Virus record (IMG/VR): IMGVR_UViG_3300028886_000011
Span: 1 to 49,146 of that record
Length of the DNA: 49,146 nt
Strand: one strand, 5' to 3'
Source of the DNA: a virus
Under the pieces are notes generated by a model. It ran no database searches, had not been told where the DNA came from, and saw only the letters and a list, made by a program, of their open reading frames with translations. Shown here piece after piece: positions 1,890-48,281 of the stretch. The position numbers were made by a program, and so were the translations under genes. Each line of letters starts with the position of its first letter. The first letter of the stretch is position 1.

Positions 1890-2927
1890 TTATTCACCAA
1901 ACTTTCTCGCTTGAAAATGTTTTACTTCCGCATTTCCAAAATCAAAATCTATCTCTGAGCCGTACAAAATAACTTGCTTCGGCTGTAACCTTGTCATAGC
2001 CTCTTTCATTCCGTCAACCCATATTTCTTTCGCCTTTTTATCTCGCATTACTCCGACAGTTGACACAGCCACCGTTCCGCCCTGTTCCAGACCATCAAAG
2101 CAAAATTGATATGTTTCTTTTTCAGCCCATGATAGTGTTGGAATAACTTTAATCCCTGCGTCTTGACACATCTGCCCGATAAGTCTTGACCTGTAAGCAT
2201 TCCATATCTTCATAGCCATAGGCATATCCATATAAAGCGACCAATCGGGAGTAAAAACACACTGAAACTTTTTCAAGCGTTCTATGATAAGTTGAGGGCT
2301 GTTCCATATTCTTTCAAATTGGTAATCGTCAATAAAGAAATGTACGCCTACATTTGTTTCCTTTGCGGTCTTGACATAGTTAAAACCAATCAAATTTTCG
2401 GGAATATAATTGCACTTCTTGAGAATAGGCATATTGTAAAAGCCTTGCGTTCTGCTTTCATCATATTCATTGAGATTTACGGAATTATATGTCTTTTCTC
2501 GTTCGTCACCGTAGTAGCCGTCATCATCTTCGTTTTCAAAATCGGGTACAGATATATCCAAATCAAAACCAAGGTCACCCATATCAATATCGGTTATGCC
2601 GTCAAGTTCCAAATCCAATAAATCCATGTCCCACGTTGCAAGCTCACTGACTTTGTTATCTGCAAGTCTGAACGCTTGAATTTGCTGTTCTGTCAAATCG
2701 TCTGCAATAATGCACGGTACTTCTTTCATACCGATTTTCTTTGCAGCTTTCAGGCGTGTATGACCTGCAACAATGGTTTTATCCTTGTCGATGACAATCG
2801 GCACCTTGAAACCAAATTCACGGATAGAGTTTGCTACATAATCAACTGCATCGTCGTTGTGACGAGGGTTATTTGCATACGGTATTAACTCGCTTGTTTT
2901 GATGTACTCAACTTTCAATTCCGACAT
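1890..2927 (-). CDS. ParB-like N-terminal (nuclease/CTPase-fold) domain fused to DUF4417
   Basis: ParB motifs: PYANNPRHNDDAVDYVANSIREFGFKVPIVID, VAGHTRLKAAKK. The C-terminal half (VHFFIDDYQFERIWNSP...FTPDWSLYMDMP...KVIPTLSW) matches the DUF4417 pattern. ATG 2927 follows GAGGTG. Confidence 0.7.
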   Translation of the reverse strand: MSELKVEYIKTSELIPYANNPRHNDDAVDYVANSIREFGFKVPIVIDKDKTIVAGHTRLKAAKKIGMKEVPCIIADDLTEQQIQAFRLADNKVSELATWDMDLLDLELDGITDIDMGDLGFDLDISVPDFENEDDDGYYGDEREKTYNSVNLNEYDESRTQGFYNMPILKKCNYIPENLIGFNYVKTAKETNVGVHFFIDDYQFERIWNSPQLIIERLKKFQCVFTPDWSLYMDMPMAMKIWNAYRSRLIGQMCQDAGIKVIPTLSWAEKETYQFCFDGLEQGGTVAVSTVGVMRDKKAKEIWVDGMKEAMTRLQPKQVILYGSEIDFDFGNAEVKHFQARKFGE

Positions 2928-2939
2928 ATCGCACCTCAA

Positions 2940-12197: not shown

Positions 12198-12843
12198 AAT
12201 TCATACCTCCGTGTCCGTGCAGATAAATAAATCTGCTGTTTATACCTGCATTTTTTATGATAAAATCATCTGCTTTTGCCTTTGAGAGATGATTTTTCAA
12301 TACGTCTTTTTCATACGCATATTCGCCTTTTGATACCTTTTCGGCAATTCGCTGTTGAATTTCGTTGTCTTCATAATTGGCTTCAATCATATAGAAGTCA
12401 AAATTCGGTGCTATAATGCCGTTGAGGTCGTTTGTATCTGTCGCATAAATGATTTTTTCGCCGTCTTCGGTATAAATTTTATATCCACAATTTTGTACAT
12501 TGTGGTTAAGAGGTATCATTACAAGCGACACAAAATCAATGTAATTGTTTCTGGTATTCGGAGAATACACATCAATTCTCCATTTCTGCACACCGCAAGC
12601 TATCAATTTGTTGATAAGCCACTTACCGCACCCGAAACGGAGTGTCGGGCGTTTTTCGGCAAGTTTTTTTATCGTTGACGGGCAGAAATGGTCGCCGTGT
12701 TCGTGTGTGAGGAGTACCAGTTTCAAGCCCTTGATGTAGGGCTTGATGTCTTTGAACGGTACTCCGCAATCAATCAAGATTTCATCATTGATGATGACTG
12801 CATTTCCCTTTGAGCCTGTGGAGATTATATTATAAGTCATCAA
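12190..12843 (-). CDS. Metallo-beta-lactamase-fold hydrolase
   Basis: HEHGDH motif. Typical partner of phage recombination modules. Confidence 0.75.
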   Translation of the reverse strand: MMTYNIISTGSKGNAVIINDEILIDCGVPFKDIKPYIKGLKLVLLTHEHGDHFCPSTIKKLAEKRPTLRFGCGKWLINKLIACGVQKWRIDVYSPNTRNNYIDFVSLVMIPLNHNVQNCGYKIYTEDGEKIIYATDTNDLNGIIAPNFDFYMIEANYEDNEIQQRIAEKVSKGEYAYEKDVLKNHLSKAKADDFIIKNAGINSRFIYLHGHGGMNFE

Positions 12844-13440
12844 TATTCATCTCCTGTGGCGGTGTTTGCATCTGAACGGGAGTAGGCGGTGTTTCGGGGA
12901 GATTTTCGGGCTGAGGTTCATCAATTTCTGTCGGAACAAAATCGCCGTTTTCCGTCGTGTTTGCCGCTTTATTGTCCACTTCAAACGCTTTTTGCATTTC
13001 GGCTGACATAACGCCCCATTTGCTTATAATTTGACGAAGCATTGTCTTTTTTGCCATGCCGTCAAAATCTTTGTACCAAAATGAAGAATACTTCCACTCG
13101 TCTTTTTCGGGATATTTCTTTGCAAGAAAATCTTCATAGCTGACTTTCGGATACTGACCGCCCGTTGCATTTAACGAAAATGCAGGGCTGTATTTGTCAG
13201 CGTGTTTTAACATCTGCTTTTTAGACCAATACAGCACTTTTTTAAATCCGTTGAGATACTCGAACATCGCGTAATATCCGACGGTTTCAGCCGCCTCACG
13301 TTCATCAAAGTCCTGTATGGGATTGAGTTCAATTTCGTCATCAAAAGGATTGTAGTAACCAAGCTCGCCTTCCTTGATTTCCATAGCATTGATGTGCTTG
13401 TAAAATCCCGAACGTACCGCAAGCTGTATGTAACCTTTAT
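12830..13440 (-). CDS. recT: RecT recombinase, exon 2
   Basis: The frame is open from 13440 (YKGYIQLAVRSGFYKHINAMEIKEGE...FWYKDFDGMAKKTMLRQ). It joins in frame to exon 1. Confidence 0.8.
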
Positions 13441-14392
13441 CATTTATACCAACGATTTACCATTTGTGTTGGATTAGACTATCTCTTCATCTCACAAGAT
13501 GCCGTGCGCTTGGAGTGGTAACTCATCTTCCACTCTACACAGTTACATTCATCACTGTTAGTCGTTACACTACAAGTATCGGTAATGCTTTCCCTTGCAA
13601 GTCTTATATTTACCTTTCAAGTGTCCGCATAACGTAGACAGTCCGTATTTTTCGTTTGCGTCTTTTATAGACTTAAATACTTCGCCTGTCTCAATACAAA
13701 TGACTGGTTTATTACGATAACTATTATCTCTGTGTCGGTCTTTAAGCTTTGCACATCTCTTTTTTATCGTTTCTTGGCTTTGCTTTTTTCCAAGATTTGC
13801 GTTTCTGAGCTTTTCCCTTGTTTCCTCAGAAACACTATGTCCTACCTGCGGCCCTTTAAGATTGTTCTTTATAATCTGAGCTTTTTCTTCTTCTGTTTTG
13901 GAGTCCCATTGTTTTTTCCCGGCTTCTCTCAATTTTTCCTTTGTTTCCTCGCTAAAAGATATTCCGGTAATTCCACGTCCCCCACGCGTCCTGTTATATT
14001 CGGGCTTTAATTTTTCTATCCAAAAAATTTCCCGTTCGTCTAACAGAGACTTGTCACATTCTTCCAAGACTTCAAAAGAGAAATTATCATATCCGTACTT
14101 ATTATACGCACGTTTAAGGCTTTGGTTGGATTCGCTGCAAATATATTTGTGTTCTTTTTTTCTGCGTTGTATATCTACGCTTTGACCGATATATTTTTTT
14201 CCATTTACAAGATTTTTTATTAAGTAAATGCCAGTCATAATGTATCACCTCAAATACATTATAGCACGGTGTTGCCCTTATGTCAATTCTTTTTAGGATA
14301 TAGAGGCTGTGGAGGGTTTCCACCGTTAGCACATAAAACTGTACACCCCTGAGTAATAGGGTTCACACGGTTTTACTTGACCCATTAGGTTA
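13441..14392 (-). mobile_element. Group I intron (952 nt) carrying a GIY-YIG homing endonuclease
   Basis: P1 pairing: CUUGGCU (14399-14393) with GGUCAAG (14382-14376), giving a U.G wobble at the 5' splice site. Terminal G at 13441. Splicing restores GYKG and the reading frame. The endonuclease ORF is internal. Confidence 0.75.
13570..14238 (-). CDS. GIY-YIG homing endonuclease with NUMOD3 repeats (I-TevI-like)
   Basis: GIYLIKN...KYIGQS...R...EH...N, then SEETKEKLR and SEETREKLRNANLGKK repeats. Own RBS: GAGGTGA. Confidence 0.85.
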   Translation of the reverse strand: MTGIYLIKNLVNGKKYIGQSVDIQRRKKEHKYICSESNQSLKRAYNKYGYDNFSFEVLEECDKSLLDEREIFWIEKLKPEYNRTRGGRGITGISFSEETKEKLREAGKKQWDSKTEEEKAQIIKNNLKGPQVGHSVSEETREKLRNANLGKKQSQETIKKRCAKLKDRHRDNSYRNKPVICIETGEVFKSIKDANEKYGLSTLCGHLKGKYKTCKGKHYRYL

Positions 14393-41026: not shown

Positions 41027-42007
41027 TCATCTTTGAGTATATTTCGGTTTGCTTGCTTTCCATTCTTCATAGGATTTCCCGTCAAGTTTTGTAAGACTTC
41101 TTCCCGATAAATCGTGTTCAAGCCCTACCATTTGCTCTATAAGTGTACACCGACAATTATAGACCTCACTCGGCTTCCCCTGTGGGTCACCAGGATAACG
41201 ACAACCGTTAGAGAATTTACCGCCTATTTTTATTCTTTCGCCGTCAAGTTGTCGGTGTGAATGTCGTGTCCTGCCATCAAGAGTTGCTACCCACTGCATT
41301 TCACCCTCAATTCCCATTTTTTCGGCTCGTTTATATGCGTCCACTCTGCCAGCGTTTTGTGCTCCCGTGTACATTGTCCTTGCATACCTCACGGAATTTG
41401 AATAATTGCTGTTTGTAACTTTCTGCATTCGTTGTGCAAGGTTCGTTATTGCTTCCCCTTGCAGTATGCCTTGCAACAACTCTGACTGCACTTTCTTTTT
41501 GTTCCATGCAATGTCTTTCCCTGCCGCAATAGCACGTGCCACCTTTGAATTTGGCTCGGGAGGCGGTAATAAGTCGGGGTGTTCCCTGATTAACCGCTCC
41601 ACCGTCTGCCTGTCATACAAAACATATGATGTATCAATCATGGCTTTTTGCTCAATCTCGAATGTTCCATAATTGTGGTTGAGTGCGTACACATCGGGGA
41701 TATGCCCGTACACGATACTTCGGGCAATATCGTTGACATTGTGCATATCTTCGGCAAGAACATCTCTCATTTCTTCCCACCGTCTGCCGACAATAATTTG
41801 TCCCTGTCGCCAGTTGATGTATTCCTGCTGTGTGAGTTCACCTCTTGCGACCTGTGCTTGTCGTTCCTTATCCTTTTGCTTAAATGCTTTCAAATAGTTG
41901 CTCAGCTTTTTTTGTGTTTCCTTTGCAGCTCTTTGGTATTCTCTCCGCAATTCGCTCTCGACCTGTGCAAGCATAATGTCTGTTTGCTCATGTGCATAAT
42001 CTGCCAT
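41027..42007 (-). CDS. Head morphogenesis protein (MuF / SPP1 gp7 family)
   Basis: WVATLDGRTRHSHRQLDGE and NCRCTL motifs. Confidence 0.85.
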   Translation of the reverse strand: MADYAHEQTDIMLAQVESELRREYQRAAKETQKKLSNYLKAFKQKDKERQAQVARGELTQQEYINWRQGQIIVGRRWEEMRDVLAEDMHNVNDIARSIVYGHIPDVYALNHNYGTFEIEQKAMIDTSYVLYDRQTVERLIREHPDLLPPPEPNSKVARAIAAGKDIAWNKKKVQSELLQGILQGEAITNLAQRMQKVTNSNYSNSVRYARTMYTGAQNAGRVDAYKRAEKMGIEGEMQWVATLDGRTRHSHRQLDGERIKIGGKFSNGCRYPGDPQGKPSEVYNCRCTLIEQMVGLEHDLSGRSLTKLDGKSYEEWKASKPKYTQR

Positions 42008-42752
42008 TATTGCACCGCCTTATTTTTGTTTTTTGTGCCTGTTCAATCCTGTTCTTTGCAAGCTCAAAATAGTGTTCGTCAAGTTCTATCCCGATAAAGT
42101 TGCGATTTGTATTTACACACGCAACGCCTGTACTTCCTGCCCCCATGCAGTTATCAAGCACCGTTTCACCCTCATTTGTGTATGTCTTTATGAGATACTC
42201 CAACAAATCAACGGGCTTTTGTGTCGGGTGTACGGGCTTATCTTTGGAACAGTTGCATTGTGCAAATTTTATCACATCAACAGGATAACGGCTTCCGTCC
42301 TCACAAATTGTTTCACACAAATCTTGTTTTCCATAATTTGTACTTGATTTATTATGTATTGCACGATAATATTTGTGTCCGAATGTCTTTTGCGGATTAT
42401 AAGTCGGAAGTTTATCGTAAAAAATCAAGATGTTTTCGTGTGCTTTCAACGGCATTTTGTGAGAATTTAAATGCCCTGTCCCTTGTGCTTTCTGCCATAT
42501 CCATTCATAGCGGAATTGCTTTCTGTTTGCTTGTATCAAATCAGTTGTAAAAGGTTGTTGAGAAAATAGTGCTATTGCCCCCCCAATTTTCACTAATTTT
42601 CGATATTCAGCAAAAAGTACTTGTAAATCAATCTTTTTATCCCATTTGTTCATCGTTGTTCCAAACGGTAAATCACACAACACCATATCAACAGACTTGT
42701 CGGGAATGTCTTTCATCAAGTCCAAACAATCACCTTGATACAATGTCACCAT
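41988..42752 (-). CDS. N6-adenine / N4-cytosine DNA methyltransferase (beta class)
   Basis: DLPFG (a DPPY variant) at the N-terminus, HPTQKPVDLLEYLI, and VLDNCMGAGSTG (SAM site) at the C-terminus. Confidence 0.85.
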   Translation of the reverse strand: MVTLYQGDCLDLMKDIPDKSVDMVLCDLPFGTTMNKWDKKIDLQVLFAEYRKLVKIGGAIALFSQQPFTTDLIQANRKQFRYEWIWQKAQGTGHLNSHKMPLKAHENILIFYDKLPTYNPQKTFGHKYYRAIHNKSSTNYGKQDLCETICEDGSRYPVDVIKFAQCNCSKDKPVHPTQKPVDLLEYLIKTYTNEGETVLDNCMGAGSTGVACVNTNRNFIGIELDEHYFELAKNRIEQAQKTKIRRCNNGRLCT

Positions 42753-42801: not shown

Positions 42802-43014
42802 TCATTCCTCCGAACTGTCAAGGTTATACAGTTTTTCAATATAATCCATGCGAATCTTGTTAAGTTCGGTATAAAAGAGATTGTGCTCTAAAACCTTTGA
42901 GGAGTTGATAAAACTATCAAACATTTTCGTACGTTTTTCCATGCCGTTTATTGCTTTTATCAATTCTTTACGATATTCTTCTTTTGTGATTTTCTTGTTT
43001 TCAAAATCCATCAT
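42802..43014 (-). CDS. Hypothetical protein
   Basis: 70-aa ORF. Confidence 0.5.
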   Translation of the reverse strand: MMDFENKKITKEEYRKELIKAINGMEKRTKMFDSFINSSKVLEHNLFYTELNKIRMDYIEKLYNLDSSEE

Positions 43015-43076: not shown

Positions 43077-43352
43077 CTATTCTTCATTTGTTCTTATTCT
43101 TTCTGAATAAAAACTTTTCTGCTCAAACAGTAAGGTACAAACATCATGTTCAATAATCAATCGTACATCATTTGGATAATGGTATTGAAGCCACTTAAAA
43201 ATTGGGCTTAACATTTCTGTAAGGTCTCCGTAATTTTTAGGCGAACTGTCATAAATGTGATTTTCGCAAATTTCACAATCAATGTTTTTACAAACTTGTT
43301 TATGGACACAATTGTTACACGTTCTCCAACGTTCTTTTTTGTAAGTTTTCAT
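43077..43352 (-). CDS. Cys-rich hypothetical protein
   Basis: CNNCVHKQVCKNIDCEIC. Confidence 0.5.
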   Translation of the reverse strand: MKTYKKERWRTCNNCVHKQVCKNIDCEICENHIYDSSPKNYGDLTEMLSPIFKWLQYHYPNDVRLIIEHDVCTLLFEQKSFYSERIRTNEE

Positions 43353-43362
43353 TTTTCCTCCG

Positions 43363-44916
43363 TTAAGATTTCAAAATTTCAAGTGCTTCATCTCTCGTTA
43401 CACCAATCGACTTTGAGATGATGCTTGCAGCTTGATTTTCCGTCAATACGCCGTTCGCAAACTGCTGTACAACGCTTATCAAACTCTGCGTCTGTGCTCC
43501 GTTAAGCTGCCCCCCGATTTTTTCGGCTTCCTCTATGCTTTCGCCTATGTCAACATTTTCGGTTTCTTCGCTTTCGTTTTGCTCTGCTTGCTGTACCATT
43601 CCCATTCTTTCAGCGTTCTCGGCGGTTATCTGTTGCAATACGTCTTCCGTCTTGTCACCGTCACCGAGTACAGTTAAGATTTTATTAGTTCTGTATTCCT
43701 GGGATAAATCGCCTGCGGCTGCGGTTATTGCCTGTATGGTTTCGGTTTGGTTTATCAGCACAGACCGAGTAAATGTCGGTTCATCGTCAATACCTACAAT
43801 CTTAAACAAGCTGTATAAACATTCCAATGCACACATTTCAAAATCGTCTGCTTTGTGGTTCAGCGGTTCATAAGCAGCTTTTATCTGTGTAGCCGTCACC
43901 GCTCCGCCTTTGATTTCATCAATGTTGAGTGCTTGGAAGTCCTTGTATATTTGCCTGTCAAGCCGTTCTATTTCCGCCTGTCGTTGTTCGTATGGTACAT
44001 TGACTGTATATGGAGTTATGGTCTGACCGTCAGAGGGGTTTGCAACTTTTATTCTCCTCAGCTCATCAAGCAACTGAACCATATCGGATTTATCCATACC
44101 GTCAGCACCCGAAATCAACCAGTACAGTTGTGTTTCCGTCAAATCATCTGCAAGGCTGTTGACAAGCTCGTCAACTGCGTCAATGTGGTCTTTTATGCCT
44201 GCAAGTTCGTTCAAGTGCTTGCTGTTCGCCCAAAATGGCACTATCGGGAACGCAGGGTAATTTTGACCGTCTATTATCTGCGTACCGTCAATTTCGGAAA
44301 TGCGGATTGTAATTGAATATGGTCTTTTACTGTGCAATACAACTCCGTTTACTTTGCCACTTTCATCGGTATTCCATTCATATTCGGTATATCCATCTTC
44401 TTCATAAAGCGTTGCCCTCAATGGCTTGTTATCGGCTATCTGCCAAAACCTTATGCCCGACTGCAACGCTCCTGTTTCTTCGTTTCGCAATGGGACAAAC
44501 TCAATACTTGTAAAGACTTCAACATGGTCTAAATTCCAAAAAAGAAAAGATACCGTTTTTGTCAATGACTTTTTACCTGCTTGATTAAATTTGATGTCAA
44601 AATCTTTCCCGAGCTTTGCCTTGTTGTTTTCGTCCTTTAAAGTCACGCCATTTCCTAACAAAAATTGATTAAGCTGTGTTGTGAGGATATCGAAATAGTT
44701 TGATTTTATTCGGTGGTTTGGTGTCCATTCGTTCTTCGTCAATCTGCCTGCCAAATCAACATAAAATTTCTCACGCTCAGCAGCTTTAACATTCTGCTGT
44801 TTGGCGTACTTGTCGGACGTGTCCGCTTCTTTGTACATTTTGGATTGTTTATATTTCAAAATCGTATTATACACGAACTGCATTTTATCACGTTCGTTTT
44901 CCCCGACTTTCAACAA
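43363..44916 (-). CDS. Portal protein (SPP1 gp6-like)
   Basis: 517 aa, located upstream of MuF, with an acidic C-terminal tail. The start is uncertain (TTG 44916 or ATG 44883). Confidence 0.8.
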   Translation of the reverse strand: MLKVGENERDKMQFVYNTILKYKQSKMYKEADTSDKYAKQQNVKAAEREKFYVDLAGRLTKNEWTPNHRIKSNYFDILTTQLNQFLLGNGVTLKDENNKAKLGKDFDIKFNQAGKKSLTKTVSFLFWNLDHVEVFTSIEFVPLRNEETGALQSGIRFWQIADNKPLRATLYEEDGYTEYEWNTDESGKVNGVVLHSKRPYSITIRISEIDGTQIIDGQNYPAFPIVPFWANSKHLNELAGIKDHIDAVDELVNSLADDLTETQLYWLISGADGMDKSDMVQLLDELRRIKVANPSDGQTITPYTVNVPYEQRQAEIERLDRQIYKDFQALNIDEIKGGAVTATQIKAAYEPLNHKADDFEMCALECLYSLFKIVGIDDEPTFTRSVLINQTETIQAITAAAGDLSQEYRTNKILTVLGDGDKTEDVLQQITAENAERMGMVQQAEQNESEETENVDIGESIEEAEKIGGQLNGAQTQSLISVVQQFANGVLTENQAASIISKSIGVTRDEALEILKS

Positions 44917-44958: not shown

Positions 44959-45336
44959 TCAATCTATATTGCAGTGGTTCATTCTTTCGGTCAGTTTTCC
45001 CAACTCTTTTTGAATGTCTGTGATTTGCTGTTGCTGTTGTTTTATACAGTTGCAAAGTATCAACACTTCTTTGTCAACAAAATCGGTGTTTTCGACTTTA
45101 TCTATCAACTTCAATATGTTGTCTTTCTGCTTGTCTTTGCTTTCTTCGTACAAATACCAATCTTCACACATCAAGCAGTAATCAACAGGCAGTATTTTAA
45201 CTTCATATTCTTCGCCGTCTTGCCCGTCACGTTTAAAAAGTCTATCGGCTTTCATGTAGTAAAATGTCGGATAGATTTCGGCTCTTGTTATGCGTTTGCC
45301 GTTTCTCATAGCAAACAAGGCTTGTTCAAATTTCAT
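44959..45336 (-). CDS. DUF2829 (Tad2-like) protein with a coiled-coil tail
   Basis: MKFEQALFAMRNGKRITR ... CEDWYLY, then QQQQQITDIQKELGKLTERMNHCNID. Confidence 0.65.
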   Translation of the reverse strand: MKFEQALFAMRNGKRITRAEIYPTFYYMKADRLFKRDGQDGEEYEVKILPVDYCLMCEDWYLYEESKDKQKDNILKLIDKVENTDFVDKEVLILCNCIKQQQQQITDIQKELGKLTERMNHCNID

Positions 45337-45350
45337 TCATTTTCACCCTT

Positions 45351-45713
45351 TCAGATGTTGCAATAGTTCATTCTCTCGTTCAAGTCTTTTACTTCATCTT
45401 GCAATTCTTTAATTTGCTGTTGCAGTTGCTCAACAACGCAATTATACAACGGCGAATTGTTTTTGTTGGCGTAATCGCCATTTCTGATTTCTTCTGCTTT
45501 TCGACCAGTTTCTTCCATTGGAGTGTAAACACTCCAATTATCAGACAATATATAATCTATACTCAACACAGTCATTATTTCGTCGGGTTCGTTATAGTGG
45601 GCAGCATAAATATTCATGCCGTCTTTTATGTAAAAATATTTTGCAAAACACTTATCCCAAACGTGAACTTTAAGTCCTTTTCTCATATACTGTAACGCTT
45701 GTTCAAATTTCAC
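45351..45713 (-). CDS. DUF2829 (Tad2-like) protein with a coiled-coil tail
   Basis: (GTG)KFEQALQYMRKGLKVHV ... SDNWSVY, then LQQQIKELQDEVKDLNERMNYCNI. Confidence 0.65.
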   Translation of the reverse strand: MKFEQALQYMRKGLKVHVWDKCFAKYFYIKDGMNIYAAHYNEPDEIMTVLSIDYILSDNWSVYTPMEETGRKAEEIRNGDYANKNNSPLYNCVVEQLQQQIKELQDEVKDLNERMNYCNI

Positions 45714-45716
45714 TGT

Positions 45717-45968
45717 TTACACTCCTTTCGGTTTGTGCAATGAAAGGAAAGCCACTCTCCATTTCAATAAGCTTACTTTATCTTTTAATTCTTGGATTTG
45801 CCTTTGTGCGTCCTTTGATGTTGACAACTGCATTTTTTCACGTTCAGCAACGCTTTTGTCAATCAAGTATTGGATATGCTTTTCGATTTCTTTGTAACTC
45901 TCTTTGTTGTCGGTTTTAAATCTTATCTCATAATCGCCACCGCCGACAATGGTGTTATACTCAATCAT
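45717..45968 (-). CDS. Hypothetical coiled-coil protein
   Basis: 83-aa ORF. Confidence 0.5.
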   Translation of the reverse strand: MIEYNTIVGGGDYEIRFKTDNKESYKEIEKHIQYLIDKSVAEREKMQLSTSKDAQRQIQELKDKVSLLKWRVAFLSLHKPKGV

Positions 45969-45980
45969 TGTTGCACTCCT

Positions 45981-46232
45981 TTATTCAATAACTGTCGTTT
46001 CAAATTCCTCTATTTCCCATTTGCAAGTGTTTTTGTATTCTTCAAGCAAACACCAATCATCAAGAAGCATTATCTCCGTGCCTATATATTCACACCAAAA
46101 TTCTGTTTCATCATAGCTATTGTGCTGATATATTTTACCGTCTTTGACATAATAGTAAAAATACGGTGGAAGCGATTGTCTTGTTACTTCTTTACCGTCT
46201 TTCATAGCTTTTAAAGCCTGTTCAAAAGTCAT
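45981..46232 (-). CDS. DUF2829 (Tad2-like) protein, short form
   Basis: MTFEQALKAMKDGKEVTR ... LDDWCLLEE. ATG follows GAGGAG. Confidence 0.65.
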   Translation of the reverse strand: MTFEQALKAMKDGKEVTRQSLPPYFYYYVKDGKIYQHNSYDETEFWCEYIGTEIMLLDDWCLLEEYKNTCKWEIEEFETTVIE

Positions 46233-46237
46233 TACTA

Positions 46238-46414
46238 TCACTCCTCGTAATATCCCGATATTGCGTACATACTGAAACGCATAGTATCTGATAATTTGTT
46301 TTGAGTTTTTGCTTTACTGTTTACAAGTTTGCATATATAGAACTCGCAATTATCACACTCTCTTATTATTTCGTCTTTGGTGCTTATAATACCGTCTTTC
46401 ATGCACAAAAACAT
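46238..46414 (-). CDS. Small Cys-containing protein ending in SGYYEE
   Basis: ATG 46414 follows GAGGAG. The C-terminus is shared with the next gene upstream. Confidence 0.5.
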   Translation of the reverse strand: MFLCMKDGIISTKDEIIRECDNCEFYICKLVNSKAKTQNKLSDTMRFSMYAISGYYEE

Positions 46415-46418
46415 TTTA

Positions 46419-46637
46419 TCACTCCTCATAATATCCTGACAATGCGTGCATACTGTCACGCATGATTTGTGGTAAATTTATTTTTGCAATAGATAAAATT
46501 GTTTTTGGGTGTTCGTTTGTGGCAAACAGAAATAACAACAGGAACATTTTTGTTGAAAAGTCGCTTTTGTCAAATCTTTCTGTCAATGTTTTTTCGTCAA
46601 GTTCTTCAAAGGTTTTATAAGCGTCATAAAATTCCAT
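46419..46637 (-). CDS. Hypothetical protein ending in SGYYEE
   Basis: 72-aa ORF. Confidence 0.5.
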   Translation of the reverse strand: MEFYDAYKTFEELDEKTLTERFDKSDFSTKMFLLLFLFATNEHPKTILSIAKINLPQIMRDSMHALSGYYEE

Positions 46638-46700: not shown

Positions 46701-46808
46701 TTATCCAATAATTGAAATAACCAAACGCAACAAGCCCCCCCCTATGCAAAGCAGTATGATAACAATGGCTAAGATGTTACCTGCAATATCATCTTTTCTA
46801 TTTTTCAT
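46701..46808 (-). CDS. Small hydrophobic peptide (35 aa)
   Basis: ATG follows GGGAGGAAACACAG. Sequence: MKNRKDDIAGNILAIVIILLCIGGGLLRLVISIIG. Confidence 0.4.
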   Translation of the reverse strand: MKNRKDDIAGNILAIVIILLCIGGGLLRLVISIIG

Positions 46809-47106
46809 CTGTGTTTCCTCCCGTGTACGGTGTGCCGTCTGGATTAAGCATAACACATACCGACACTTTGCCTTTATTGGTAATACAAAAATAACAAACC
46901 CCCGTTTTATCGTGCTTGTATATTTTATAATTGTCCGTTTTATCAATAATTGTCATTTCGGACGGTGCGTTTCTGTCATCAGTTGATTTTGTGGGATTAC
47001 AACCACCCAACGCTAAAACTATCAACATTGCCAACAACGCTGTCAGCACCGCTGTCAACACCCCTGTCAACAATGTTATTACAGTGATTCCTTTCACTTT
47101 TATCAC
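46798..47106 (-). CDS. Putative lipoprotein
   Basis: Hydrophobic signal sequence ending in the lipobox-like LALGGC. GTG start overlaps the terL stop. Confidence 0.55.
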   Translation of the reverse strand: MIKVKGITVITLLTGVLTAVLTALLAMLIVLALGGCNPTKSTDDRNAPSEMTIIDKTDNYKIYKHDKTGVCYFCITNKGKVSVCVMLNPDGTPYTGGNTDEK

Positions 47107-48281
47107 CTGTCTTTCGGTACAACTTTCATGGTTTTTACAAAATACCGGATTGAATCCAAAGAATGGTCATTCTCTTTCACTGGTGTTTCATCATCATTCC
47201 ACACATACCCCTCAAATTCACGCCTTACAAATTCCAAGCTCGGATTTATCTTGATTTTGCCTTTTTGGATTGCAACCGCTGTTTCTCGTATGCCGTCATT
47301 TACAGCATTATCAGCGGATACAACGTGAAATATATGTGCCCTTTTCATAGCCGTTATGAAACTTGCCGCACTCGGGTCAACGATTACCTTCAGCTTTGTC
47401 CATTCGTTCCCGTACGCCCCGAACTGTGATAACATATCCTGTACATAATCATCATCTGTCTTATTTCTCTGCTCAGTTCTGCCACTGTAATAATAACCAT
47501 CAACAGCATACCAAACACCGTCTATTTTCGCCCATAGCAACGCTGCGAACGCATTGAGTGTACCATAGTCAATAGATAACACAAATTTCTCTGCACGGTG
47601 TTTCCAATTTTCGGGAGGTTCTTCAAACGACTGTTCATACATCGGGTATATCAATCCCTCTGCAAGCGACCATTCGCCTTGAATGTACCGCTTGTAATAA
47701 ACCGTTCCTGCATACTCTTGACATAGGTTTTCAACAAACTCTTTCGGTAGATATGGATTGTCAAATATGGTTGAAGTCTGATAAAAAATATCGGGTGCTG
47801 TGTCAATAAACTGCTTGATGTAGTGGCTTGGGCTGTCGGGGTTTGCCGTTCCGTCAAAATAGCTGTGTTTGCACCTCAAACGGCTTTTCAGCATTTGGAA
47901 TACAGGCTCAGCCCACGTTGTCATTTCGTCACCGTATGCGTATTCTATCGTCATACCTTGTATTCTTGCAACGTGCTTTTTGTTATCAGCACCCAACACC
48001 CACACTTTACGACCGAATAGATTTGCCCTGTTGTTGCTGATAGTGCCTACAAGCCTGTCCCCGAATATTTCACGCATTGGGTCAAGGATATTTCTTTCAG
48101 CCGTTCCCTGCGTATTCCCGAGAATGACCGCCGCACCCTCACCTCTTAGGCACATCAATCTTCGGGGGATAACATAAGCATAATCAAGCCACGACTTGCC
48201 CGAACCTGTCGCACCGACTTTGATATTCCAACGGTGGTTGCAGTTTTGGAGATATTCTTTTTGTTTATCGCTTAAAGGCAT
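47103..48281 (-). CDS. terL: Terminase large subunit
   Basis: Walker A VGATGSGKSW. C-terminal nuclease-region acidic residues. 392 aa (PBSX-type size). Confidence 0.9.
   Translation of the reverse strand: MPLSDKQKEYLQNCNHRWNIKVGATGSGKSWLDYAYVIPRRLMCLRGEGAAVILGNTQGTAERNILDPMREIFGDRLVGTISNNRANLFGRKVWVLGADNKKHVARIQGMTIEYAYGDEMTTWAEPVFQMLKSRLRCKHSYFDGTANPDSPSHYIKQFIDTAPDIFYQTSTIFDNPYLPKEFVENLCQEYAGTVYYKRYIQGEWSLAEGLIYPMYEQSFEEPPENWKHRAEKFVLSIDYGTLNAFAALLWAKIDGVWYAVDGYYYSGRTEQRNKTDDDYVQDMLSQFGAYGNEWTKLKVIVDPSAASFITAMKRAHIFHVVSADNAVNDGIRETAVAIQKGKIKINPSLEFVRREFEGYVWNDDETPVKENDHSLDSIRYFVKTMKVVPKDR

Follow-up and report, generated by a model that had tools for sequence, protein, structure and literature searches.

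Three mini-Tad2 paralogs encoded between the terminase and portal genes of a phage lack the canonical gcADPR ligand signature

We analyzed the whole 49,146-nucleotide (nt) stretch of IMG/VR virus record IMGVR_UViG_3300028886_000011 (positions 1 to 49,146; hereafter, the window), in which three small proteins, called c1, c2, and c3 here, are encoded between the genes for the terminase TerL and the portal protein. These paralogs belong to an insertion-less "mini" branch (~60-70 amino acids) of the DUF2829/Tad2-fold superfamily, which takes its name from Tad2, the phage sponge for the Thoeris signal gcADPR. Judged by alignment, the canonical ligand signature as a whole appears to be absent from all three proteins. 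The reading we favor, with a probability of roughly 0.55, is that c1, c2, and c3 are oligomeric accessory binders, probably acting in counter-defense, that use the mini-Tad2 fold and not the canonical gcADPR pocket. The three genes are:

c1: 44959-45336, minus strand; 125 amino acids with an ATG start, from the open reading frame (ORF) call
c2: 45351-45713, minus strand; 120 amino acids, with a GTG start 8 nt 3' of AAGGAG
c3: 45981-46232, minus strand; 83 amino acids, with an ATG after GAGGAG

A first-pass annotation of the window had singled out these ORFs as divergent DUF2829 paralogs. All three are present and lie on the minus strand; the end at 46241 given there corresponds to an alternative GTG upstream of the c3 ATG. 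The motifs it quoted can also be read directly: the N-terminal MKFEQALFAMRNGK, MKFEQALQYMRKGL, and MTFEQALKAMKDGK, the core ends EDWYLY, DNWSVY, and DDWCLL, and the extra tails on two of the copies, TERMNHCNID in c1 and NERMNYCNI in c2.

The three proteins are true paralogs, with a likeness far beyond chance at a mutual identity of only 27-38%. BLASTP aligns c1 with c2 over the full length including the tail (5e-17), c1 with c3 at 4e-13, and c2 with c3 at 3e-7. An independent family profile was built from 91 members, with the window proteins and their nearest relatives left out. Run against the 879 six-frame ORFs of the window, this profile matches exactly c1, c2, and c3, with scores of 79, 68, and 60 bits (c2 at 59.9) and E values of 1e-23 to 1e-17. 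Both c1 and c3 are under purifying selection, with ratios of nonsynonymous to synonymous substitution rates (dN/dS) of 0.14 for c1, measured against its ortholog in the relative L001, and 0.12 for c3; the ratio for TerL is 0.10. Independent assemblies or samples yielded c1 and c2 proteins identical to these.

The DUF2829 family and fold assignment made in the first pass is correct, with thin direct support from Pfam. c3 matches Pfam PF11195 at 27.0 bits, above the gathering cutoff of 25, although it aligns only over profile positions 1-40 of 73. c1 reaches 18.2 bits, under the same cutoff, and c2 has no direct Pfam match. When the 80 top homologs and the three window proteins were scanned against PF11195 (E <= 1e-3), 62 of the 83 sequences matched individually. 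An exhaustive hidden Markov model search with the three N-terminal domains (N-domains) returned 201 cluster representatives (E <= 1e-3; 50% identity clusters), most of which are stand-alone proteins of 58-75 amino acids with the pattern MKFEEALKAMREGKKV.R...Y...ILAEDWEIVE. A first word-indexed search with the three N-domains found merely 3 proteins; with a 96-sequence domain alignment, the word-indexed search gave 412 clusters at 90% identity.

The family profile leads to Tad2. Against the PDB it matches five distinct solved Tad2 sequences (1.7e-10 to 6e-5) and essentially nothing else, including ModTad2 end to end at 1.7e-10, SPO1 Tad2 at 7.4e-8, HgmTad2/AcrIIA7 at 8.8e-7, and SptTad2 at 5.8e-5. 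We also assembled a reference alignment of ten Tad2 proteins, nine from Table S2 of 10.1101/2025.08.24.671296 and ModTad2 as the tenth. Comparison of the family with this alignment by hhalign gives a probability of 98.6% and an E value of 1.4e-15 over 63 columns; when the profile is restricted to the three window proteins, it gives 93% and aligns only the first 20 columns. Searches with the window proteins themselves recovered less. A direct phmmer search of the PDB with c3 reached Tad2 at just E ~0.09, a PHROGs search with the window proteins of interest returned unknown-function families only, and an NCBIfam search returned nothing. A match of the full-length profile to influenza HA2 in the PDB was rejected as an artefact of the heptad tail. 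By the criteria of 10.1101/2025.08.24.671296, the window proteins would count as Tad2 homologs.

Monomer models from AlphaFold2 (AF2) indicate that c1 and c3 carry the DUF2829/Tad2 fold. The c3 model has a mean predicted local distance difference test (pLDDT) of 89.3 and a predicted template-modeling score of 0.76, and the c1 model has a pLDDT of 85.7. In c3, helices are predicted at residues 3-11 and 52-55 and strands at 16-18, 25-30, 33-38, 43-46, and 60-62, and the order of elements in c1 is the same. This corresponds to a domain of ~62 amino acids with the topology α1-β1-β2-β3-β4-short helix-β5. Foldseek searches of the PDB bear out the fold proposed for these two copies, as the top matches of the models are exclusively Tad2 structures: the top 5 for c3 and the top 14 for c1, at probabilities of 0.99-1.00. 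The target-normalized template-modeling (TM) score reaches 0.72, with a root-mean-square deviation (rmsd) of 1.5 Å, and no other credible structure was returned. Matches of the models in BFVD are mostly viral proteins named Tad2-like or DUF2829. c2 is placed in the DUF2829/Tad2 superfamily on sequence evidence alone. Overall, the mini-Tad2 paralogs almost certainly share the Tad2 fold.

Overlaying what is known of Tad2 onto these proteins shows where they depart from it. Tad2 is a tetramer. Its V- or X-shaped dimer units are packed through β2 and through helix α2 of the β2-β3 insertion, and α1 is where these dimers interlock. Two gcADPR pockets per homotetramer are formed between protomers. 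In SPO1 Tad2 the ligand contacts are W25, N26, W73, S76, T78, and D79 (10.1101/2023.05.01.538930). The pocket of HgmTad2 is made of W21/N22/G23 and W87/S90/T92/D93, and binding is abolished in its W21A/N22A and S90A/T92A/D93A mutants (10.1101/2023.11.15.567273). In our ten-protein alignment, W25, W73, and W85 are invariant, and R, G-N-G-K, and D79 (and N26) are nearly so.

Relative to Tad2, the mini family has a gap of ~20-28 columns exactly at the β2-β3 insertion. In the AF2 model of c3, a two-residue hairpin turn takes the place of the insertion between the strands at 25-30 and 33-38, and across 244 mini-family homologs the β2-β3 insert is 0-7 amino acids long. The ligand positions are replaced as well. 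At the sites of SPO1 W25/N26/W73/S76/T78/D79, c1 has I/Y/K/P/D/Y (starting with I21-Y22), c2 has K/C/T/S/D/Y (K21-C22), and c3 has L/P/E/G/E/I (L21-P22); hmmalign and hhalign concur on all six positions. The G-W-N-G motif of the β1-β2 loop and the C-terminal W-x-x-S-x-(S/T)-D motif before LAEDW are not present in c1, c2, or c3. Similar residues do occur nearby, with a W19-D20 pair in c2 two positions upstream of the W25-N26 site, W46 in c3 two positions upstream of the W73 site, and an acidic residue one position ahead of D79 in each protein. A small register shift near W73/D79 is possible from the alignments. Column by column among the 244 homologs, W25 is W in 30%, N26 is N in 9%, D79 is D in 36%, and the W73 column is unconserved; the combination of W25, N26, W73, and D79 occurs in 0 of the 244. 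Conservation in the mini branch is confined to the scaffold positions F3, A6, L7, G13, D59, and W60.

Because the pocket residues and the β2-β3 insertion are gone, sponge function does not follow from the family placement. The suggestion of the first-pass annotation that the three copies are sponges for gcADPR or other nucleotide signals, with differing specificities, is thus not borne out: the insertion is missing, the six contact positions are replaced, and a tested homolog that also lacks the insertion, Tad2_80, is inactive on the seven systems tried.

Comparison with individual Tad2 proteins sharpens this picture. SPO1 Tad2 (gp34.65; PDB 8SME/8SMF/8SMG, 8WJE) has, like the window proteins, a helix at the N-terminus and then an antiparallel sheet that ends in ..AEDW.IV, and the scaffold motif F..AL..(L/M)(K/R).GK.V is common to both. 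It is the best Foldseek match of c3 (8smg_A, TM 0.62/0.60) and among the best for c1 (8wje_B, with the highest target-normalized TM and the rmsd given above). However, SPO1 Tad2 is 89 amino acids long and contains a ~24-amino-acid β2-β3 insertion with α2, where the window proteins have a tight hairpin. MoTad2/ModTad2, a sponge for His-ADPR and cUMP from a Myroides odoratus prophage (PDB 8V3E, 9EIB), is the best profile match in the PDB and the top Foldseek match of c1, but unlike the mini family it retains REGWNGKG, ATWTPSVSD, and an insertion of ~20 amino acids. HgmTad2/AcrIIA7 (PDB 8KBI-8KBM, 8WJC), a sponge for gcADPR and cGG/cGAMP, belongs to the same superfamily and also comes from gut phages. 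Its second pocket, for cyclic dinucleotides, is formed from a long β2-β5 insertion, and it has the gcADPR pocket residues; both elements are gone in the window proteins.

A screen of 84 sponges provides a closer comparison. The validated-active Tad2 homologs whose sequences were read mostly retain GWNGKG and W..S..D, with the exceptions of Tad2_75, in which the GW loop is missing, and Tad2_79, with KWSKD. The sole tested homolog that aligns end to end to the mini profile without an insertion is Tad2_80 (73 amino acids, IMG/VR), which scores a moderate 21.7 bits against the mini-family profile. Its length is close to that of the window proteins, and it shares with them the lack of N26 and W73; unlike them, it keeps W and D at the W25 and D79 positions, respectively, and has no coiled-coil tail. 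Tad2_80 is inactive on Thoeris types I, II, and IV (10.1101/2025.08.24.671296).

In contrast to any solved Tad2, c1 and c2 have an extra helical tail of 55-60 amino acids. The AF2 monomer model of c1 has the N-domain at ~residues 1-63, a helix at 67-82, and a 35-residue helix at 89-123 with pLDDT 88-96. c2 shares this N-domain, and the heptad pattern of its helical tail is a clean 3-4 repeat. In both proteins the last helix shows a regular 3-4 hydrophobic spacing and ends in (E/K)(R/K)MN(H/Y)CNI. C-terminal variation extends to the wider family: among the 152 relatives collected by that stage, 40 have diverse C-terminal extensions of more than 30 amino acids and 10 are two-domain mini-Tad2 fusions, and BFVD matches of 200-240 amino acids also contain the mini domain.

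The three genes are only part of a 2.2-kb run of small genes, the other members and boundaries of which are:

47103-48281, minus strand: TerL, the upstream cassette boundary (Terminase_6N 1.8e-10; phrog_2 2e-37)
46798-47106, minus strand: DUF6440 protein, the first cassette gene (PF20037 26.9 bits, cutoff 26.5)
46238-46459 (or a 58-amino-acid version from 46414) and 46419-46637, minus strand: small cassette ORFs upstream of c3
45717-45968, minus strand: ORF83, 83 amino acids, between c2 and c3, with a small head and a heptad tail
43363-44916, minus strand: SPP1-type portal, the downstream cassette boundary (PF05133 1e-29; phrog_64 8e-37)

The order of transcription on the minus strand is TerL, the DUF6440 gene, 46419-46637, 46238-46459, c3, ORF83, c2, c1, and portal. 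The location between terminase and portal is therefore as first described, but the copies are not an uninterrupted tandem, as ORF83 splits c2 from c3. The gaps between c3, ORF83, c2, c1, and portal are 12, 3, 14, and 42 nt, and a GGAG-type ribosome-binding site precedes each gene. A promoter and terminator scan gave nothing above shuffled expectation.

ORF83 has the head YNTIVGGGDYEIRFKTDNKESYKEIEKHI, with the pattern YNT..Y.I.F.TD..Y..E, and matches no Pfam, PHROG, or NCBIfam family. Its head matches the interior of two larger proteins, P0006 (250 amino acids, BLASTP 5e-8) and P0007 (288 amino acids, 4e-6), in which a mini-Tad2 domain comes first, the ORF83 head stands in the middle, and a coiled coil comes last. 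P0007 ends in ..LNEKMNYCNID, as c1 and c2 do. These Rosetta-stone fusions argue that ORF83 may work together with mini-Tad2 proteins. A profile search with the coiled-coil tail found the c1 ortholog only, and the pattern of a common tail on many heads could not be extended past P0006, P0007, and a 178-amino-acid protein of the relative L011. The cassette is one of interchangeable modules, namely mini-Tad2 heads, the ORF83 head, and, in relatives, a Cys-rich head, with an optional C-terminal coiled coil.

Relatives show how variable this region is. In IMG/VR relatives with TerL identities of 57-61% (L012-L017), the portal gene directly follows TerL, and a mini domain within 6 kb was found in 0 of 50 relatives; the 2.2-kb run is therefore an insertion, a mobile accessory cassette at the TerL-portal junction. 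L001 (TerL 96%) has c3 and c1 without ORF83 and c2, plus a 64-amino-acid Cys-rich head. L011 (TerL 87%) has no mini-Tad2 protein, and in it the Cys-rich head is fused to a coiled coil to give the 178-amino-acid protein. The Cys-rich head (ATVEFEV..CHDC..FPEWCPL) thus occurs alone at L001:1982-2176 and fused at L011:7801-8337, in the same TerL-portal cassette, which parallels the head-plus-tail modularity of c1 and c2.

Three further relatives, L061-L063, which are three runs of one study, have a single gene that is a c3::c1 chimera (L061:3678-4053). It matches c3 exactly in the upstream junction and over the first ~32 nt, and is c1-like from there on. The frame is broken by a one-base deletion, with a T6 run where intact homologs have T7; the gene could be a genuine pseudogene or contain a phase-variable tract, or the three runs could share an assembly error. 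The window itself contains three DNA repeats:

D1: 44966-45039 (3' end of c1) and 45355-45428 (3' end of c2); 74 nt, 72% identity, encoding the common coiled-coil end
D2: 46236-46302 and 46417-46483; 67 nt, 78% identity
D3: 45283-45337 (5' end of c1) and 46179-46233 (5' end of c3); 55 nt, 73% identity

The L061 chimera switches parent inside the D3 segment, and D3 is likely a substrate for recombination between the paralogs. Copy number in the cassette changes when paralogs recombine at their conserved 5' ends. The ORFs at 46238-46459 and 46419-46637 have in common only their last 18 amino acids (..MR.SM.A.SGYYEE; BLASTP 9e-7) and the stop/ribosome-binding-site junction TAYGAGGAGTGATAGTAATG. 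This junction also precedes the chimeric gene of L061 and may be a cassette boundary for recombination. The ..YEE-stop codons of these small ORFs double as the Shine-Dalgarno site of the next gene.

Multi-copy arrays are a recurrent trait of the mini branch. Among other, unrelated metagenomic phages, L066 has three diverged mini-DUF2829 genes in near tandem (L066:9470-10189), and L064 has two (L064:8532-10201). Other metagenomic mini-DUF2829 phages thus share the ~60-70-amino-acid domain and the recurring tandem arrays, whereas only the window phage and its close relatives showed the TerL-portal position and the split of head and tail into separate genes. Most mini-family genes elsewhere encode bare domains and lie, as in L066 and L064, among small early-type genes, far from structural genes. 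A relatives search with the three N-domains identified one IMG/VR locus. A blastn search of the region against INPHARED phages gave terminase fragments only, and no relatives were found in GTDB genomes (searched with the N-domains and portal) or JGI metagenomes (searched with the N-domains). In a separate IMG/VR record (IMGVR_UViG_3300042890_001412; L010:339-855), an 87-amino-acid intermediate DUF2829 protein (..REHWNQ..STWLPGHSDLLAEDW) overlaps an ORF for a fully canonical Tad2 (..VGWNGKG...VPWLASQTDMLAEDW). A single phage can therefore carry canonical and divergent Tad2 paralogs side by side.

These observations suggest a model in which c1, c2, and c3 are oligomeric binders. The heptad tail of c1 and c2 would supply the oligomerization that canonical Tad2 gets from α2, and c3 would self-associate or pair with its paralogs via α1. 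ORF83 might join the coiled-coil oligomer of c1 and c2. Binding would take place where subunits meet, as in all Tad2-fold proteins studied so far, and the target could be another small immune signal or a protein, rather than gcADPR in the canonical pocket. A function exercised at interfaces between domains would suit both the multi-copy arrays and the two-domain fusions. As to the parts of this model, the odds of a counter-defense role of any kind are slightly better than even, and a signal sponge of some kind is a doubtful proposition.

Several points count against the model. We infer tail-driven oligomerization only from the heptad pattern and from the helix in an AF2 monomer model. The ORF83 tail resembles that of c2 weakly (9e-4), a likeness that may reflect coiled-coil composition only. 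No pocket common to the mini branch is visible, as scaffold positions alone are conserved across the 244 homologs. Tad2_80, the one insertion-less homolog tested, inhibited 0 of 7 Thoeris, CBASS, and Pycsar systems (Table S2, 10.1101/2025.08.24.671296). The genes are located in a late structural operon, whereas early expression would be expected of sponges. Finally, the frameshifted c1 ortholog in L061-L063 suggests that c1 is dispensable.

Two more specific explanations survive best, and we hold each of them to be unlikely when taken singly. In the first, the proteins are sponges for a different, possibly undiscovered signal, bound in a new pocket between mini domains in oligomers of c1, c2, and c3, with ORF83 possibly recruited via the coiled coil. 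Tad2 proteins are known to have second pockets at other interfaces, for cGG/cGAMP in HgmTad2 (10.1101/2023.11.15.567273) and for cUMP in MoTad2 (10.1101/2025.08.24.671296). In addition, 19 of the 84 screened homologs inhibited no tested system, for which the authors suggest unknown ligands (10.1101/2025.08.24.671296). The recurrent arrays, the two-domain fusions, and the Rosetta-stone proteins P0006 and P0007 would also suit such an assembly. However, no candidate pocket residues are conserved across the 244 homologs, the second pocket of HgmTad2 is made from the very insertion that is missing here, and expression from a late operon is not what a signal sponge calls for.

In the second explanation, which we regard as unlikely to the same degree, the mini domain is a generic interaction or oligomerization head directed at a host or phage protein, for example to block a defense sensor or effector directly, and the variable C-termini give activity or avidity. 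The fusion of the N-domain to many unrelated C-terminal regions (the 40 of 152 relatives and the long BFVD matches) and the conservation of the scaffold with variable surfaces are in keeping with this possibility. So is co-expression with TerL and portal, which are known triggers of some defense sensors. Against it, such a mode is without precedent among the known Tad2-fold proteins, and no partner can be named. An anti-Cas9 activity claimed earlier for the DUF2829 protein AcrIIA7 was not reproduced (10.1101/2023.11.15.567273).

The setting of the genes raises a third possibility, that they encode head-assembly or packaging accessory proteins that act structurally or as chaperones. The genes belong to the head-morphogenesis operon and share its strand, they are closely spaced and have good ribosome-binding sites, and two of the products have coiled-coil tails. 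Yet TerL and portal are adjacent and the genes are missing in L012-L017, other genes occupy the site in L011, c2 and ORF83 are missing in L001, and c1 is frameshifted in L061-L063. Elsewhere the mini family is found away from structural genes, among small early-type genes. We therefore rejected a structural or assembly role as the principal explanation on account of the absence of the genes from close relatives, and consider it very unlikely.

Marginally less likely still is the canonical alternative, in which c1, c2, and c3 are Tad2-type sponges that hold gcADPR (3'cADPR/2'cADPR) in the inter-protomer pocket and differ in oligomeric form or specificity. The Tad2 fold and the relation to PF11195 are what one would expect of such sponges, Tad2 homologs are functionally plastic (10.1101/2025.08.24.671296), and W19-D20 in c2 and W46 in c3 each lie two positions upstream of ligand sites. 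However, neither c1 nor c3 has equivalents of W25/N26/W73/D79, and in c2 they are out of register; these contact positions are invariant or nearly so in the aligned canonical Tad2s, and their mutation abolishes binding. The insertion with α2, from which the dimer unit is built, is gone, and Tad2_80 fails on all three Thoeris types named above. Canonical gcADPR sequestration is at best a slim prospect for these proteins. Finally, that the genes are decaying duplicates without current function, as the 27-38% identity, the one frameshifted ortholog, and the variable copy number might suggest, is extremely improbable, and pseudogenes were rejected on dN/dS, which at 0.12-0.14 is like that of TerL, with all ORFs intact behind Shine-Dalgarno sites, identical proteins in independent samples, and confident AF2 models.

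The remainder of the window gives the context for the cassette. The phage is gut or rumen-type, and the window looks like the complete genome of a siphovirus-type phage of a Gram-positive anaerobe, encoding ParB-DUF4417, a DnaC-like loader, RecT, RusA, MuF, a tape-measure protein, and an endolysin (CW_7 + SH3). Features outside the mini-Tad2 genes include:

41988-42752, minus strand: N6/N4 DNA methyltransferase (PF01555 1.6e-29), between portal and a MuF-like head protein
12830-13384 and 13570-14238, both minus strand: a RecT-family ORF of 184 amino acids, covering RecT profile positions 95-187 only, beside a GIY-YIG/NUMOD3 homing-endonuclease-like ORF
1890-2939, minus strand: ParB_N + DUF4417 fusion (DUF4417 1.4e-73), near one window end

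The methyltransferase is accompanied by small ORFs at 43077-43352 and 42802-43014, and together they make up a second accessory insertion in the head operon. The presence of this methyltransferase moron in the late operon means that the phage does place counter-defense genes there. With its LGGC lipobox and a membrane segment at the N-terminus, the DUF6440 protein (46798-47106) is a putative phage lipoprotein; its gene overlaps the TerL stop and is also kept in L001 and L011. It could be a moron of the superinfection-exclusion type. Insertion of the endonuclease may have split or truncated recT.

Taken together, our results separate fold from function in this part of the Tad2 superfamily. The family itself was known already. 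What is new is the residue-level loss of the binding apparatus in this branch, the coiled-coil-tailed versions, the modular link to ORF83, and the recombination-driven change of copy number at a TerL-portal hotspot. The cassette is a small, clear example of how phage accessory genes are reshuffled, by recombination of paralogs via gene starts and common stop/ribosome-binding-site junctions. Current annotation labels every PF11195 match "Thoeris anti-defense 2-like", and for the mini branch this label over-predicts function. The branch is sizeable, as its 201 representatives and 412 clusters attest, and has kept the scaffold while losing the features of a gcADPR sponge. A bolder proposal, which we consider distinctly improbable, is that mini-Tad2 proteins are a separate, widespread class of sponge in which hetero-oligomers of paralogs, formed by the coiled coils of c1, c2, and ORF83 or by tandem fusion, trap an undescribed immune signal. 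If that were true, mini-Tad2 proteins would be bait for discovering both the signal and its defense system, as Tad1 and MoTad2 were for 3'cADPR and His-ADPR. The mini branch is thus a reasonable place to seek sponges for signals not yet known, or a way of using the Tad2 fold that is new.

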